DNA of 64,000 bases from a virus (Duplodnaviria > Caudoviricetes), in the IMG/VR virus record IMGVR_UViG_2974751938_000001, positions 106 to 64,105 of that record, one strand, 5' to 3'. The notes beneath the pieces are model-generated. The model did no database searches. It saw nothing but the letters and a program-made list of their open reading frames with translations, and had not been told where the DNA came from. This document shows positions 1,177 to 63,961 of this stretch, piece after piece. Numbering within the stretch: the first letter of the stretch is position 1; every line of letters starts with the position of its first letter. The translations under genes and the position numbers were made by a program.

Positions 1177-1212
1177 GTGGTAGAGACCCAGAAAACAGCC
1201 CGGAAGGCTACT

Positions 1213-1674
1213 ATGAGCAACTACAACGACGAAGAGATCATCGACCCACAGGAGCAGATCGGGGACTTCCTTCGGGAGAAGACCGTCGCTCGGACCCGGA
1301 CCCAGAGCCGGGTGCCCTATGCCGATCTCTACGACGTCTACGTCCGATGGACCAGGGCTCGCGGCGAGTTCCCGGAGAGCAAGCACATCTTCGGCAAGAT
1401 CCTCCGAGAGACCTTCGACATGCCGATGAAGTCGTTCAGCCGACGGGTCGACGGGAAGGTCACGTCGATCTATTGCATCCTCGGTCTCGCGTGCGACGAG
1501 GTCCCCGATGCCTCGAATAAGCGGCTCTCGGTAAAGGACCGGGAGATTGCTCGGTTGAAAGTCGAGAATCTCGAAATGCGCGAGGCGATCTGCACCTTCG
1601 CCGGGGTCTCCGACTTCGACGCCGCTATCACCAAACTGACCGCCAGCAATACCCCGAGCACCATTCAGGAATGA
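1213..1674 (+). CDS. Stand-alone winged-helix protein resembling the D5/P4 primase C-terminal domain, plus a short coiled-coil
   Basis: FLREK..LYDVYVRW..ESKHIF..RRVDGKVTS aligns by eye with the primase C-terminus FLAEK..LFEIYKQW..MSKREF..RRGGKVSS. Alternative start at 1177. Confidence 0.6.
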   Translation: MSNYNDEEIIDPQEQIGDFLREKTVARTRTQSRVPYADLYDVYVRWTRARGEFPESKHIFGKILRETFDMPMKSFSRRVDGKVTSIYCILGLACDEVPDASNKRLSVKDREIARLKVENLEMREAICTFAGVSDFDAAITKLTASNTPSTIQE

Positions 1675-12826: not shown

Positions 12827-14506
12827 ATGACGATGATCGAGTACCCAGCCGTTGACAACGACGACTTCGAGTACCCCACGCTCGGACCCCAGGTCCGCGC
12901 GTTCATCGAGGAGCGGTTCACCTTCGGGCCGGGCTCGTTGCAGGGCCAGAAGGCCAAGCTGAGCGACGACCAGTGCCGTGTCCTCTACCGGTGCTACGAG
13001 TATTATCCGAAGGACTTCCGGCTCTACGGCATCGACATGACCGGCCGCCGCCGGTTCCAGCGTGGCTCGTGGTCGGTGCGCAAGGGCTCGGCCAAGACCG
13101 AGTTCATGGCCTGGGTCACCGGCGCCGAATTGCACCCCGAGAGCCCCGTCCGGTGGACCGGCTATGACCCGACGGCCGACGGAGGGCTGAAGACCGGCCG
13201 AGCCGTCAACAACCCCTACATTCCGCTGCTGGCCTACACCAAGGACCAGACCGAGGAACTGGCCTTCGGCGCGCTCCGCTCGATCTTGGAGTCCTGCGAC
13301 GACGCCGACCTCTTCGACATCGGCAAGCAGCGCATCCTCCGGCTCAACGAGTTCGGCGCCGAGGACGGGAAGTGCCACGCACTCGCTGGCAACCCGAACT
13401 CGGCCGACGGCGCGCGCACAACCTTTCAGGGCCTCGACGAGACGCACCGTCTCTACACGCCGACCCACCGGGACGCGATCGAGACCATGCTCAACAACCT
13501 CCCGAAGCGACCCCTCGAAGATCCCTGGCAGTTGGCGATCACCACCGCGGGTGAGCCCGGCCAGGGGTCCTACGCCGAAGACGAGTTCCGCGAGGGTGTC
13601 CAGTGCGTCGAGGGCAAGAAGTCCTCGAAGGGGTTCTACTTCCTGCACCGGCAGGCACCCGACGGCTCGAAGTTCGACACGATGCAGCAGCGCATGGCGG
13701 CCGTCTGGGAGGCCACGTCGCCGTCGGTCCGGGAGTGGACGCGCTTCGACTCGATCGCCGCGCAGTGGGACCGCGAGGGAGCCGACAAGCAGTACCTCGA
13801 ACGCGTCTGGACGAACCGCTGGACCCAGACCGCCGCGCAGGCCTTCGACCGCGAGGAGTTCGAGGCCCTCGGCGACAACCGGTTCACCATCCCCGACGGC
13901 TCGTTCGTCACGGTCGGTTTCGACGGCGCGAAGTTCCAGGACTCGACCGGCTTCGTCGTCACCGACATCAGGACCGGCCGACAGAACGTGCTCGGCTTCT
14001 GGGAGCGGCCGGACGACTCGGTGCTCGGGAAGAACGAGGACGGGACCAAGGTCAAGTGGCAGGTCCCCGAGGCAGAGGTCAACGCGACCTTCGACGAGAT
14101 CATGCGCCGGTTCAAGGTCTGGCGCGTCTACGCCGACCCGCCGCACTGGGTCGAGACCGTCGCGAACTGGCACGCGAAGTACCCTGACCAGGTCTTCGAG
14201 TTCTGGACCAAGGACCCGACCCGCATGTACTACGCGGTGAAGGGCTATCGCGGAGCGATCGCCAACGGCTCGGTCTCGCACAACGGAGACCCGGATCTGG
14301 TGAAGCACATCGGCAACGCTGGCAAGCGGACCACCCGCGGGACCGACGAAGACGACGAGCCCCGTTTCGTGCTGACGAAGATCGCATACGAACGCAAGTT
14401 CGACCTCGCGGTGTGCGCGATTCTATCGTGGGAGGCGAGGATGGACGCGATCAACGAGGGTGCTCAGCCGCCCGTCGACTCGATGGAGATCATTCGTGTG
14501 CGCTGA
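12827..14506 (+). CDS. Terminase large subunit
   Basis: Walker A RKGSAKT, Walker B LDETH, nuclease GFDG..DST. Confidence 0.92.
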   Translation: MTMIEYPAVDNDDFEYPTLGPQVRAFIEERFTFGPGSLQGQKAKLSDDQCRVLYRCYEYYPKDFRLYGIDMTGRRRFQRGSWSVRKGSAKTEFMAWVTGAELHPESPVRWTGYDPTADGGLKTGRAVNNPYIPLLAYTKDQTEELAFGALRSILESCDDADLFDIGKQRILRLNEFGAEDGKCHALAGNPNSADGARTTFQGLDETHRLYTPTHRDAIETMLNNLPKRPLEDPWQLAITTAGEPGQGSYAEDEFREGVQCVEGKKSSKGFYFLHRQAPDGSKFDTMQQRMAAVWEATSPSVREWTRFDSIAAQWDREGADKQYLERVWTNRWTQTAAQAFDREEFEALGDNRFTIPDGSFVTVGFDGAKFQDSTGFVVTDIRTGRQNVLGFWERPDDSVLGKNEDGTKVKWQVPEAEVNATFDEIMRRFKVWRVYADPPHWVETVANWHAKYPDQVFEFWTKDPTRMYYAVKGYRGAIANGSVSHNGDPDLVKHIGNAGKRTTRGTDEDDEPRFVLTKIAYERKFDLAVCAILSWEARMDAINEGAQPPVDSMEIIRVR

Positions 14507-39640: not shown

Positions 39641-42175
39641 TCAGGCCAGGGTGATCCCTCGGTACCCATGCTCCGAGGACACCTTGCCTCCACGGCGAAC
39701 GGTCATCCGTTGTGACGGGTGGCCGTTCTCGTTCATCCGGGCCATGAACTCCCGCTTGCTCATCGGGTCCCGGACGTCTTCGAGCTTGCACCACTGCTTG
39801 TAGATCTCGAACAGCTTGGTCGCGGTGATCTTGCCCTTCGACTCGACGCGGATCTTCTCGGCCAGGAATGTCTGGAACGCCGAGGTCCCCGAGATGAAGG
39901 TCCGGCGCCGGGCCAGGACCTCCTTCGGCACGTTGTTGTCGAGGCCTTCCATGAGGTAGTCGATCAGGCCGTCGACCAGCCAGCAGAGCACGGCGCGCAG
40001 GGCCTCGGGGACGTTCTTGATCGGCGTCACGTCGGGACCGTTGAGCGGCACGGTCGAGTCGAAGGGGAGCACGAGCAGACGCCGCCACAGAGCCGCGTCG
40101 CCGTCGTCGATGGTCGGCATCGAGTTCGTCGCGATGATCGGGGTGAACATCGGGGTCCGCTGGACCATGACGTTCGAGTAGAGCGCACGGGCAGTGACCG
40201 AGTCACCACCGGTGAGCCTCTTGATCACGTCGGAGTGGAGCTTGTTGCGCTGGCCGACCTCGGACGCGAAGACCACCCGACGCGGGAATGCCGCGATGAT
40301 CTCGGGCATCGGACCGGCGTCGCGCTTCTGCCGGAAGAGGCCGTTCATGTCGATCGACGCGGCGTAGTCGCCGAGCGCCGCCTGGCAGGCCTCGATGATG
40401 GTCGTCTTGCCGGTCGAGGTCCCTCCCTGAAGGAAGACGATGCGGCGCTGGGGATTGCCGCCCATGAACGCGTAGCCGAGCACCTTCCGGACGTACCGGC
40501 GATAGTCGGGGTCGGGCAGGAACGTGGCGAGGTAGTTGTCCCAGAGCGCGTGAGTGAACTTCGGCTCGTAGGCGACCGGGGTGTGCTGAAGAATCAGGTC
40601 CTCGGGCTTGCCCTTCCGGCACAACTCGTCGTAGCTGTCGACCGCCCCGCGGGCTTTGACGGCGCGCAGATCGAGGACGCCGTTGCCGACTCCCCACGTG
40701 AGCGGTTCGATGTCGAAGTCCGCGGGATCGACGGGGTGCGTCGAGAACGCGTGGGCCAGGCTCATCGAGTGCTCGATCTTGGTACGGTTCCCGGCCTCGG
40801 TGGCGCGTTTCTCGTAGGCCTTGGCCTGCTTCAGCGTGTCGTCGGCCTCGGACATGCCCTGTTCCTCCTGGGCCGACCCGAGACGCCACATGCCCTCGGC
40901 AGCGGCCCGGAGGGAGGCCTGCACGGTGCGCGACCACAGCAGGCCGTAGGTCTCGGCCTTCGAGAGCTTGACCAGGCGACCGATCTCGTCGTCCCACCAG
41001 GCCCACTCGTCGGCGCCGGAGCGGATCGGACGGATCGCATCACCGAGAGCGTCGAGGAACATGTGAGCGCGGCCGGAGTCGCTGTCCTCGTACTCGGTGG
41101 CATCGACGATGGTGTTGCGGCGCTCGATCCACTGCGCGAGGGTCTTCTCCCGGAACACCGAGAGGTCGATGTCGCCGTCGGCCGCGGTGTACCCGCCGAC
41201 GGTCGAGATCCGGATGAGGTCGTTGGCGATGTCCGCGCGGAGCTTGGAGACTTCCCCGCACAGAGCGCGCCGCCACTCCAACTTTGACGTGGTCAGGTCA
41301 CGCCGGGCCTCGCTGTCCTTGGCGCCGAGCACGTCCTCGAAGAAGGCCTTCCGCACGCGGCTCAGACCGATCTTCAGCCCGTGGTGCCCCTCGGCCGCCA
41401 ACTGGACGATCTCGTGGACCCGGTTGACCATCATGTCGTGCGCGCCGCTGGACATCTCGTCTTCGAGCTTGGCGGGGTCGGTGGTTCGGTCCATCGCGCC
41501 GGACGGATCGGAGTCGTAGCCGGGGATCTCGCGTTCGAGCCACTCGAACGCCTCTTCGATGTCGTCGATCTCCTCGATCACCCGGACCTGACCGGCGTCG
41601 CCCTTGCAGAGGCCTTCGATCCAGGCCTGGGGGAGCTTCGGGAGGTCCTTCACCCGCGGGGGAGCGTCGGTCGGGTGCTCGTCGAGGTCGTACCACCGGT
41701 AGGTGCGATCGGAGACGGTCGAGGGCCATACAACGGCGTAGCGGTGGGTGCGCTGGATGATCTCGATGTCCGGGCCGGGCTTGCCCTTCCACTTCAGACC
41801 GGCGGGGACGAGGTAGAACCGGATGCCCGACGGGTTCTCCGGGTCGCGCGAGGTCGAGCGCCACGTCCGCGGGAGCGAGCCGTACTCGGCAATCAGATCG
41901 GTCAGCGTTTCGCCGCCGGTCTTGTTGTCGTACTGGTCCACGTCGAGGCCGATGACCTCGTACTTCTCGCCGTCGATCGTGACGGTCGGCATCCGGAGTC
42001 CGATGTTGGACTCGGGGATCTCCTCGGCCCAGTTCTCGATGTCGTTGGGGTCGACATATGGCTTGTTGCCGGTGGTGTCGTCAGGTGGTGGGTACTTCAT
42101 CCCCTCGGGTAGAGGTAGAGGGCTCGCCCAGCCCTGGCGAAGGTACAGACCGGCGTGGTCACCGTATGTCGTCAC
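39641..42175 (-). CDS. DNA primase-polymerase / SF3 helicase (Prim-Pol + D5-like)
   Basis: NIGL..GLDVD Prim-Pol motifs, Walker A GGTSTGKTT, C-terminal winged helix. Confidence 0.9.
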   Translation of the reverse strand: MTTYGDHAGLYLRQGWASPLPLPEGMKYPPPDDTTGNKPYVDPNDIENWAEEIPESNIGLRMPTVTIDGEKYEVIGLDVDQYDNKTGGETLTDLIAEYGSLPRTWRSTSRDPENPSGIRFYLVPAGLKWKGKPGPDIEIIQRTHRYAVVWPSTVSDRTYRWYDLDEHPTDAPPRVKDLPKLPQAWIEGLCKGDAGQVRVIEEIDDIEEAFEWLEREIPGYDSDPSGAMDRTTDPAKLEDEMSSGAHDMMVNRVHEIVQLAAEGHHGLKIGLSRVRKAFFEDVLGAKDSEARRDLTTSKLEWRRALCGEVSKLRADIANDLIRISTVGGYTAADGDIDLSVFREKTLAQWIERRNTIVDATEYEDSDSGRAHMFLDALGDAIRPIRSGADEWAWWDDEIGRLVKLSKAETYGLLWSRTVQASLRAAAEGMWRLGSAQEEQGMSEADDTLKQAKAYEKRATEAGNRTKIEHSMSLAHAFSTHPVDPADFDIEPLTWGVGNGVLDLRAVKARGAVDSYDELCRKGKPEDLILQHTPVAYEPKFTHALWDNYLATFLPDPDYRRYVRKVLGYAFMGGNPQRRIVFLQGGTSTGKTTIIEACQAALGDYAASIDMNGLFRQKRDAGPMPEIIAAFPRRVVFASEVGQRNKLHSDVIKRLTGGDSVTARALYSNVMVQRTPMFTPIIATNSMPTIDDGDAALWRRLLVLPFDSTVPLNGPDVTPIKNVPEALRAVLCWLVDGLIDYLMEGLDNNVPKEVLARRRTFISGTSAFQTFLAEKIRVESKGKITATKLFEIYKQWCKLEDVRDPMSKREFMARMNENGHPSQRMTVRRGGKVSSEHGYRGITLA

Positions 42176-47894: not shown

Positions 47895-48133
47895 TTCCCG
47901 ATGCCCGCGTCCCTGGGGTTCACGGGATCGAACGAGTCGACCCACTCGGCGACGGCCTTCGGGTCGGCCAGAGCCTCGCGGAGCTTGGCCGCGTATTCGG
48001 CGTACTCACGGGTGCCCTCGGGGAACTCCGGGATCACCTGGGCCTGGATCTCCGGCGGCAGGTCGGACAGCCCGCGCTCGGCGGCGTAGCGCGCACGAGC
48101 CTCGGCGGGTTCGAGATAGGTCTCGCTCACCAC
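47891..48133 (-). CDS. Hypothetical protein
   Basis: GAGGAG RBS. Confidence 0.6.
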   Translation of the reverse strand: MVSETYLEPAEARARYAAERGLSDLPPEIQAQVIPEFPEGTREYAEYAAKLREALADPKAVAEWVDSFDPVNPRDAGIGK

Positions 48134-48354
48134 ATTCTCCTCATCGGTACGGTCGGCCCATGCTCGGGGCAGTAGGTCCGGCGGTTGCGCTGGCCGACCC
48201 AGAGCGACCAGCCTTCCTCGATCAGCTTCGGCACGGCGTAGTGGGACGTGTCCAGATGGGTGCCCCACAACACCTGCTCGAAGTTGACCCGGCGAGGGCA
48301 GTTCGGCCGGTCGCAGGTGATGCCGGTCAGCGCCGTGTTGGTGATCTCGGCCAT
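48127..48354 (-). CDS. Small Zn-binding protein (CDxxxC..GW..CxxH)
   Basis: Motifs CDRPNC, GW, CPEH; GGAGG RBS. Confidence 0.65.
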   Translation of the reverse strand: MAEITNTALTGITCDRPNCPRRVNFEQVLWGTHLDTSHYAVPKLIEEGWSLWVGQRNRRTYCPEHGPTVPMRRMW

Positions 48355-63093: not shown

Positions 63094-63126
63094 ACCCCTG
63101 TTACCACCAGGTAGCGGGGGTTTCTT
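63094..63126 (+). terminator. Intrinsic terminator (near-copy of 60208)
   Basis: ACCCCTGTTACC / GGTAGCGGGGGT followed by TTCTT. Confidence 0.75.
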
Positions 63127-63133
63127 CGTGTGT

Positions 63134-63961
63134 GGGTAGGGGTGTCACGGGGTAGGGGTGTCTGGGAGGGGTCGCCATATGGCGCGCTCTGAGCGACGCT
63201 CAGCGGGTGTTACGGCGTGGCCTGGTGTCGGTGCCCTGGTGTGTCGTCGCTTCGTTGTCGGCGCGCTGATCGGCGTCTATGGGTAGGCCTATGGGGAGGG
63301 GTAGGCGATATTTTTTTATTTATCAATGTGCATTGCAATGGTGAATAAATGGCATTGTGTGAATGGATAAATAAATGATTGTTTCAGAATAAATAAATGT
63401 GTGAATATGAATGGCATATATAGGTAGGGGGTAGGGGTCCTATATAGGGGGTAATATGTGCATATCCATATATATTTAGATATGCTAATAATAATCAATA
63501 TGATTGTGAGATATTATTATGTTTGATTGTTTATGTTGACGTCAATATAGATATATGAATGGTGATTGATTGTGTGTGTGGTGTGAGCAGATAGGGGAGG
63601 GGGTAGGGGGTGTCATGGGGTACGGGGGTGTCTTCGTGTGGCGCGCGCTGGTGGTGTGATCGGTTGCGGCCGTTGGCCTATGGGGTAGGCAGTGGGTAGG
63701 GGTGCGGTGTGGTGGTGGTGTGGTTGGCCTGGTGGTGTGCTGGTGGGTGTTGGTGCGGCCGTTGGGGTGTCGGCGTCGTCGGGTGTGTGGTGGCCGTGCG
63801 TAGCGGTGTCTGAGCGTGCCGTGTGCGGGTCCGATCGGGTGAGGGTAGTCGGCTGGTGGTCGGTGTGATTCTGTCGTGTGTGCGTGGCTCTGACCTGGTG
63901 GTATGGCATGGCTGAAGGGGTCCGGTGTCGGGGGAGGATCGCGAAGGGTACCGGGGGTGTC
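63134..63961 (+). repeat. GGGTA(N0-2)GGGG(G)TGTC repeats near the right end
   Basis: Copies at 63134, 63150, 63601, 63618 and 63946. Confidence 0.65.

Follow-up and report, generated by a model that had tools for sequence, protein, structure and literature searches.

What might a phage do with a second, unattached copy of the winged helix that ends its own primase-helicase, and what does it mean that this copy is encoded directly beyond a conserved non-coding gap? These are the questions raised by gene 2 of the window (the whole stretch of DNA analysed, 64,000 nucleotides), which covers almost the whole genome of a Gordonia-type actinophage with a GC content of 65%. Its product, gp2, is encoded by the first gene after the small terminase gene 1 and a 638-bp low-GC gap. 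The reading frame proposed by the initial annotation runs from an ATG at 1213 to a stop at 1672-1674 and gives 153 aa, with GC contents at codon positions 1, 2 and 3 of 0.55, 0.42 and 0.83, and the next gene begins 8 nt past the gp2 stop. One close homologue of gp2 was found, P0002, which is 78% identical and has an identical start and the N-terminus MTNYDDEEII. Given the third-position GC of 0.83, the GGAAGG ribosome-binding site, the 8-nt spacing and the conservation of the N-terminally shorter form in P0002, gp2 is a real and apparently functional gene, and its proposed placement stands. The features concerned are as follows.

1213-1674, plus strand: gp2 coding sequence, for a stand-alone winged helix with a predicted zipper (list of open reading frames, GC3, P0002 homologue, family HMM)
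1202-1207, plus strand: Shine-Dalgarno sequence GGAAGG, 5 nt before the ATG (read from the sequence)
575-1212, no strand: non-coding gap from gene 1 to gp2, 638 bp, 51% GC (composition, eight-phage alignment), not a demonstrated target of gp2

Gene 1 itself (17-574) has conflicting annotations, since Pfam assigns it to Terminase_7 (small terminase) at E 2e-15 and PHROGs labels it 'minor tail protein'. A large terminase candidate is located at 12827-14506, about 12 kb from gene 1, with about 20 small genes between the two.

The winged helix and its primase-helicase counterpart

The primase-helicase of the window, 844 aa long and encoded on the minus strand at 39641-42175, shares about 75% identity with its counterparts in the Gordonia phages GTE5, GRU1 and Turuncu (Emilbogenvirinae). 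Its Pfam domains run in the order Prim-Pol, D5_N, DUF5906 and a weak Pox_D5 at residues 778-817, which is the D5-like architecture (PMC9611036). Residues 19-92 of gp2 align with residues 770-841 of this enzyme at 27% identity over about 75 residues, with a BLASTP E value of 0.003 that is marginal alone and firm when taken with profiles. A family HMM was built from 10 family members, leaving out the gp2 of the window and its 78% relative P0002, and it matched only two of the 827 six-frame open reading frames of the window: gp2 (E 8e-37) and the primase (E 1.7e-9), the latter over residues 774-849 of its open reading frame, that is about primase residues 767-842. The resemblance between the two proteins, noticed originally in an alignment by eye, is thus upheld by BLASTP and by an independent profile.

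[quoted passage not shown]

Searches started from the family member P0003, which matches gp2 at E 2e-15, lead to the same enzymes. By tblastn against 50,697 phage records its only matches were the C-terminal ends of primase-helicases of the Gordonia/Rhodococcus Emilbogenvirinae type and one gene-2 N-terminus, the best being the Commandaria primase tail (44% identity, E 2e-11). A related primase is present in 1131 phage records, and the winged helix of P0003 matches the primase in only 30, all Gordonia/Rhodococcus. Pfam scores of gp2 itself stay below threshold, at 18.5 bits for Pox_D5 (PF03288; threshold 21.4; E 0.003) and 23.3 bits for RFX_DNA_binding (PF02257; cut-off 27; E 1e-4), and P0003 and P0004 pass the Pox_D5 threshold with 26.7 bits. 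The PHROG and NCBIfam primase models reach gp2 only through the C-terminal ends of the models, and a word-index search with the primase tail returned the query itself only.

Judged by sequence, the winged helix at the C-terminus of the primase-helicase has a second, separate copy in gp2. Since that of the primase is still in place, gp2 is an extra copy, and the earlier wording of a 'split initiator' is misleading. That the winged helix is nearest to the primase tail of its own phage lineage suggests that the gp2 family captured it from there by duplication or recombination. Residues common to gp2 and the primase tails, FGK..R and (S.)RR..GKV.S.Y...G, are largely found in RFX5 too and so are fold-wide, which indicates a shared binding mode and is not proof of a shared DNA specificity or target.

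The AlphaFold2 model of gp2, made with a 12-sequence alignment (pLDDT 82.8), has a classic winged-helix topology: helix 12-23, two short strands, helices 36-49 and 57-66, a beta-hairpin wing at 72-90, and then helices 107-130 and 135-144. The fold that had been anticipated is therefore what structure prediction returns, and the comparisons with 1ka8 and the D5-like tail of ASFV given below agree with it.

1237-1500, plus strand: predicted winged-helix domain, residues 9-96, with H12-23, short strands, H36-49 (LYDVY), H57-66 and wing 72-90 (AlphaFold2 pLDDT about 90, VIA-align, pI 9.4)

The best structural neighbours of the model (Foldseek, VIA-align) are RFX5 (Z 10.8) and RFX1 (Z 10.0), with an rmsd of 2.3-2.4 over 75-80 residues. 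The ASFV PrimPol tail (residues 833-910) gives Z 8.6 and the P4 origin-binding domain 1ka8 gives Z 7.6 with an rmsd of 2.5 over 74 residues, and all of these are above the generic winged helices (Cdc6/cullin/PadR), which reach only Z of about 6. An unbiased, Foldseek-independent scan of 48,161 chains with the P0003 model placed RFX5, RFX1 and 1ka8 as the top three, and the results of a fold search with the full P0003 model were filled by winged-helix matches. The RFX DNA-binding domain (PF02257; 1dp7, 8zjr) is the best structural, Pfam and PDB sequence match of gp2, and FGK..R and RR..G...S.Y...G are in both; however, RFX proteins are eukaryotic transcription factors that dimerise via a separate domain, and the gp2 match is below the Pfam cut-off.

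The fold of gp2 is also that of the P4 alpha origin-binding domain (1ka8), the ASFV C962R tail and residues 752-844 of pRN1 ORF904. A published description likens the ASFV tail to both Rfx1 and the P4 origin-binding domain (PMC10516667), and the pRN1 ORF904 tail (pfam03288/pfam02257) has been aligned to the P4 domain and Rfx1 (PMC2777425). Two conserved tyrosines (LYxxY) are a feature of helix 2 in pRN1-type tails (Sanchez et al. 2009, PMC2777425), and gp2 keeps the pair as L39-Y40-D-V-Y43 in helix 36-49; the Pox_D5 (PF03288) primase tails, which have sequence homology with gp2, also have LYxxY in helix 2. In P4 alpha and Pox_D5 proteins the tails are attached to a helicase, whereas gp2 is unattached and has a zipper-like helix instead. 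Origin binding has been demonstrated for P4 alpha and is putative for gp2 and the actinophage primases.

The calculated pI is 9.4 for the winged-helix domain of gp2, 9.5 for the recognition helix plus wing and 5.0 for the acidic C-terminal third. Because the domain is basic and its isolated equivalent from pRN1 ORF904 (residues 752-844) binds DNA, for which no specific site was found (PMC2777425), DNA binding by gp2 appears plausible from the model. Against a DNA-binding reading counts that winged helices can also be protein-binding modules, as in the cullin WHB domains (Z about 6 versus gp2).

Downstream of the winged helix lies the element that the initial annotation had taken for a coiled coil, and which is indeed predicted as an amphipathic helix with a heptad pattern.

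1531-1602, plus strand: predicted amphipathic helix over residues 107-130, putatively a leucine zipper for dimerisation (AlphaFold2 pLDDT about 91, family alignments)

Over its 24 residues the a/d positions would be filled by I112, L115, N119, M122, I126 and F129, with Asn119 at an 'a' position, and the motif ARLxVENLELxEAI, with its heptad pattern, is kept throughout the family; phmmer matches of the helix to the geminin coiled coil are weak and non-significant. The layout with a long C-terminal helix behind the winged helix is also that of the B. subtilis RTP and PadR/LmrR dimers (Foldseek probability up to 0.98), but the whole-chain rmsd to gp2 is poor, at 12-17 A, and the likeness is architectural only. 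Among Pfam matches at E up to 1 there was none that would make gp2 a member of the PadR or RTP families. The conserved heptad-pattern helix with its Asn119, together with the presence of the RTP and PadR/LmrR dimers in the Foldseek list, makes dimerisation of gp2 plausible.

A rare family at a module-swapping position

The gp2 family is very rare and is absent from cultured phages. An exhaustive HMMER search of 1.84 billion representatives yielded only nine proteins (clusters) of the family at E 1e-3 or better, two of which score above the Pfam cut-off for Pox_D5, gp2 had no tblastn match in 50,697 phage records, and scans of IMG/VR, of JGI metagenomes and of GTDB genomes found no relative of the gp2 locus. 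The single IMG/VR match, L002, was rejected as a related locus, since its shared word falls by chance within a large virion protein. None of the family members that the exhaustive search returned has a helicase attached, nor is gp2 itself at the C-terminus of an SF3 helicase.

All more distant relatives (P0003-P0008 and P0010-P0015, 196-340 aa) start with a further stretch of about 70 residues, patterned CDxxxC…W…YCPxH, ahead of the winged helix and the zipper, and P0004 has two winged helices in tandem. Alignments place gp2 and P0002 without this N-terminal Cys/His domain, and tblastn found no remnant of the Cys domain upstream of gp2, only a separate paralogue elsewhere in the window.

48130-48354, minus strand: stand-alone Cys-domain paralogue, 75 aa, CDxxxC…YCPEH, directly upstream of the DNA polymerase gene (tblastn)

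This 75-aa frame has no Pfam family. Cys-domain homologues adjoin DNA polymerase I in the Gordonia phages Puppers and Widow, and homologues are present in Microbacterium phages too. Since the domain that is fused in the full-length relatives has a stand-alone paralogue beside DNA polymerase, a replication link for the gp2 family can be argued; and gp2, which lacks this domain, may have an altered function or be only a partial form.

Gene 2 of cultured Emilbogenvirinae occupies the same genomic position as gp2, first after a gap of about 640 bp that follows gene 1. For six of these phages (Turuncu, RedRaider, Commandaria, Tracker, NadineRae and HubbaBubba) it consists of the Cys domain and a K/R-rich tail, and gene 2 of six of the seven relatives matches the family profile at E 5e-24 to 9e-8 through the Cys-domain (N-terminal) half. 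In the seventh relative, CoffeeBean (L005), gene 2 codes for an unrelated protein of 331 aa without a match to the family profile. A winged helix is found in gene 2 of none of the seven, and the cultured form with its Cys domain and basic tail has no domain in common with gp2, which has the winged helix and zipper. Gene 2 is annotated as hypothetical in the records L001 (1342-1752), L003, L004, L006, L007 and L008, in each of which a Cys domain is followed by a strongly basic C-terminal tail. As read from the alignments, gp2 and P0002 are N-terminally shortened forms, winged helix plus zipper, at a fixed genomic site of module exchange.

A different combination is seen in P0009, a distant metagenomic relative of 584 aa, which is an ECF-type sigma factor (Sigma70_r2 and r4) whose sigma part is followed by a sigma region-4-like HTH and a Pox_D5/RFX-type winged helix, repeated three times. 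Because an ECF sigma factor carries three such winged helices, a link of the gp2 family with transcription may be drawn as well. P0009 is an unusual use of a primase-tail domain in a transcription factor, and P0016, a member of the same cluster, was named 'phage/plasmid-associated DNA primase' by its source.

The initial annotation had regarded a split initiator/inhibitor arrangement as unfamiliar from actinophages; stand-alone proteins of this fold as such are known from viruses. Small Pox_D5/RFX-like proteins that stand alone occur in viruses, bacteria and archaea: ESM Atlas contains PF03288 clusters of 85-163 aa, and the top fold matches in BFVD (E 3e-6) are viral proteins of 152-162 aa. 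They are not close in sequence, none of them being recovered by the exhaustive HMMER search with E 1e-3 or better. A text search of the PF03288/Pox_D5 literature returned only primase-helicase and satellite papers, none describing a gp2-like stand-alone protein. Small stand-alone proteins of gp2's fold are thus already in the structure and sequence catalogues, and none is characterised.

The upstream gap, the right end and the promoter boxes

The initial annotation had suggested an origin-binding role for gp2 next to an origin-like region, and the comparison with cultured relatives bears on this. Seven of these have a gap of 589-686 bp and 49-54% GC after the small terminase gene 1.

Gaps of the relatives: L001 689-1341, L003 701-1326, L004 711-1348, L005 668-1306, L006 702-1290, L007 710-1347, L008 688-1373

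Three CTGACC(W)G boxes are invariant in the alignment of the eight gaps (window plus seven cultured relatives). Two are direct (716-723 and 793-800 in the window) and one is inverted (1014-1021), the inverted box being about 220-300 bp downstream of the direct pair; the rest of the gap has diverged beyond blastn detection, and blastn of the gap against other phages gave no similarity. Three invariant boxes across eight phages argue that the gap is a functional cis-region. As the gap is equally conserved where gene 2 has no winged helix, it needs no gp2-type winged helix, and whatever the conserved gap does can be done without the gp2 module. Adjacency to a gap whose length and boxes persist in seven relatives without the gene-2 winged helix is therefore no sign of a partnership. 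The boxes may serve as an array of sites bound by a conserved protein with a part in packaging, replication or regulation.

Within the gap no iteron array was found, and scans of 400-1800 gave no RNA family with Rfam and no sigma-70 consensus promoter with a simple consensus. A terminator-like hairpin is present at the start of the gap and is not significant versus shuffles. GTAGTAG boxes in the gap were discarded as a signal, their genome-wide excess being explained by Tyr codons on coding strands.

Besides the gap there is only one other low-GC region, at 63200-63550 (down to 30% GC), which belongs to a right-end non-coding region at 63100-63720 with a 30%-GC core (63300-63590). Six same-strand copies of GGTAGGGG are in and around this core, from a total of 8 in the window versus about 1.0 expected, and the right-end region has longer G-rich repeats too. 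With an AT-rich core and the GGTAGGGG repeats, the segment at 63.1-63.7 kb looks the most origin-like in the genome and a better origin candidate than the gap.

A further set of boxes is formed by the palindromic core TTGACGTCAA, of which the window has 12 exact copies, mostly intergenic, seven of them as the full 12-bp palindrome GTTGACGTCAAC.

2832, 7097, 29582, 48650, 51168, 56396, 58183, 58342, 60252, 61037, 62723 and 63536: exact copies of TTGACGTCAA
901-910: promoter-box variant ATGACGTCAA, inside the gap 575-1212

A TAnnnT hexamer is mostly about 17-18 bp downstream of TTGACGTCAA (upstream on the other strand), and from this spacing the core is read as a promoter -35 element. It is probably the -35 box of phage consensus promoters, and possibly an operator too.

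Possible roles of gp2

The account that we prefer, with a confidence only a little above even, is that gp2 is a non-enzymatic, primase-tail-derived winged-helix and zipper protein acting as a dimer that occupies DNA sites. Homology, fold, architecture and family context are observed; dimerisation, DNA binding, a target and a role are inferred. The winged helix would have been copied from the tail of an Emilbogenvirinae-type primase-helicase, and gp2 would be a shortened member of the rare gene-2 family whose full-length form has the Cys domain, winged helix and zipper. Expressed as the first product of a left-arm operon, it would form a homodimer via its zipper-like helix and occupy specific double-stranded sites on the phage genome. 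Without a catalytic or helicase-loading module its effect would come from site occupancy, by blocking or bridging sites, and the outcome could about equally be replication control, at sites that the primase tail also reads, or transcriptional regulation, autoregulation included. A free, putatively dimerising copy of an initiator tail would be a handle on how actinophage primase-helicases of the D5/P4 type find origins and control initiation, and the binding sites of gp2 would probably point either to the origin or to those sites that the primase tail reads.

A bolder version, which is tentative and to which we give a low probability, makes gp2 a domain-captured antagonist or co-factor of the primase-helicase, either its own or that of competing relatives. 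The zipper dimer would then either take up the initiator's sites or form a pair with its tail, and so time or limit initiation or exclude relatives. To our knowledge, a control layer made of a DNA-binding domain only is undescribed for actinophage D5-like primase-helicases.

The proposal with which the analysis of this locus began, that gp2 binds the replication origin (taken to be the gap at 667-1176) and there helps to load the primase-helicase or competes with its tail, now seems unlikely. Its competitor logic is comparable to that of the papillomavirus E8^E2 repressor form, and it can call on the derivation of the winged helix from the lineage's primase tail, on the P4 alpha origin-binding domain (1ka8) having the fold of gp2, on a gap conserved in eight phages in its length, low GC and three invariant CTGACC(W)G boxes, and on the DNA polymerase genes that the family's Cys-domain partner adjoins. 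However the gap and boxes are equally conserved where gene 2 is without a winged helix, the gap was found to have no iteron array, and the iteron-like 30%-GC region sits elsewhere, at 63.1-63.7 kb. Nor is specificity indicated by the residues common to gp2 and the primase, which are fold-wide and in RFX too, and for the pRN1 ORF904 tail no specific site was found (PMC2777425). It is likewise improbable that gp2 works as a repressor or autoregulator of the ordinary kind, an early transcription factor with operators in the upstream gap or at TTGACGTCAA-type promoters, and in that case the result would be modest. Such a role would leave the primase-tail derivation unexplained, and similar TTGACG promoter boxes are also in those aligned gaps where the gene 2 of the relative has no winged helix, so that no gp2-type binder is needed there. 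It would fit with the position of gp2 as first gene after a promoter-bearing gap with a terminator-like hairpin at its start, with the 12-bp palindrome GTTGACGTCAAC, which would suit a dimer, with the 12 exact copies of TTGACGTCAA and the variant at 901, and with the RFX proteins being transcription factors and P0009 a sigma factor fusion. Phage proteins that are small winged-helix dimers are in most cases regulators, which counts in the same direction.

Two further readings take gp2 away from DNA sites or from function altogether. In one, which we hold to be quite improbable, gp2 acts on a protein, pairing with the primase-helicase tail of its own phage or of a co-infecting relative and disturbing initiator assembly by the logic of P4 Cnr, for copy control or exclusion. 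The title of Yeo et al. (2002) has the P4 domain regulated by homo- and heterodimerisation of winged-helix proteins, and the gene-2 position is variable, as is often so for accessory genes. Counted from the alignment, the wing of gp2 is nearer to Foxborovirus primase wings (about 12 of 20) than to that of its own primase (7 of 20), although this comparison rests on few residues, and the basic recognition surface favours nucleic acid over a protein partner. The other reading, a decaying and functionless remnant of a gene for Cys domain, winged helix and zipper, would account for the missing N-terminal domain that all more distant relatives have and for the rarity of the family. It is very improbable in view of the intact frame, strong Shine-Dalgarno sequence and third-position GC of 0.83, the recurrence of the N-terminally shorter form in a second phage at 78% identity (P0002), a preceding gap of the same length as in relatives and a confident fold prediction. 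Whichever role applies to the site-occupying dimer that we prefer, gene 2 documents domain shuffling at a fixed position, with the Cys domain joined either to a basic tail or to a primase-derived winged helix and zipper, and with the Cys domain lost in gp2.
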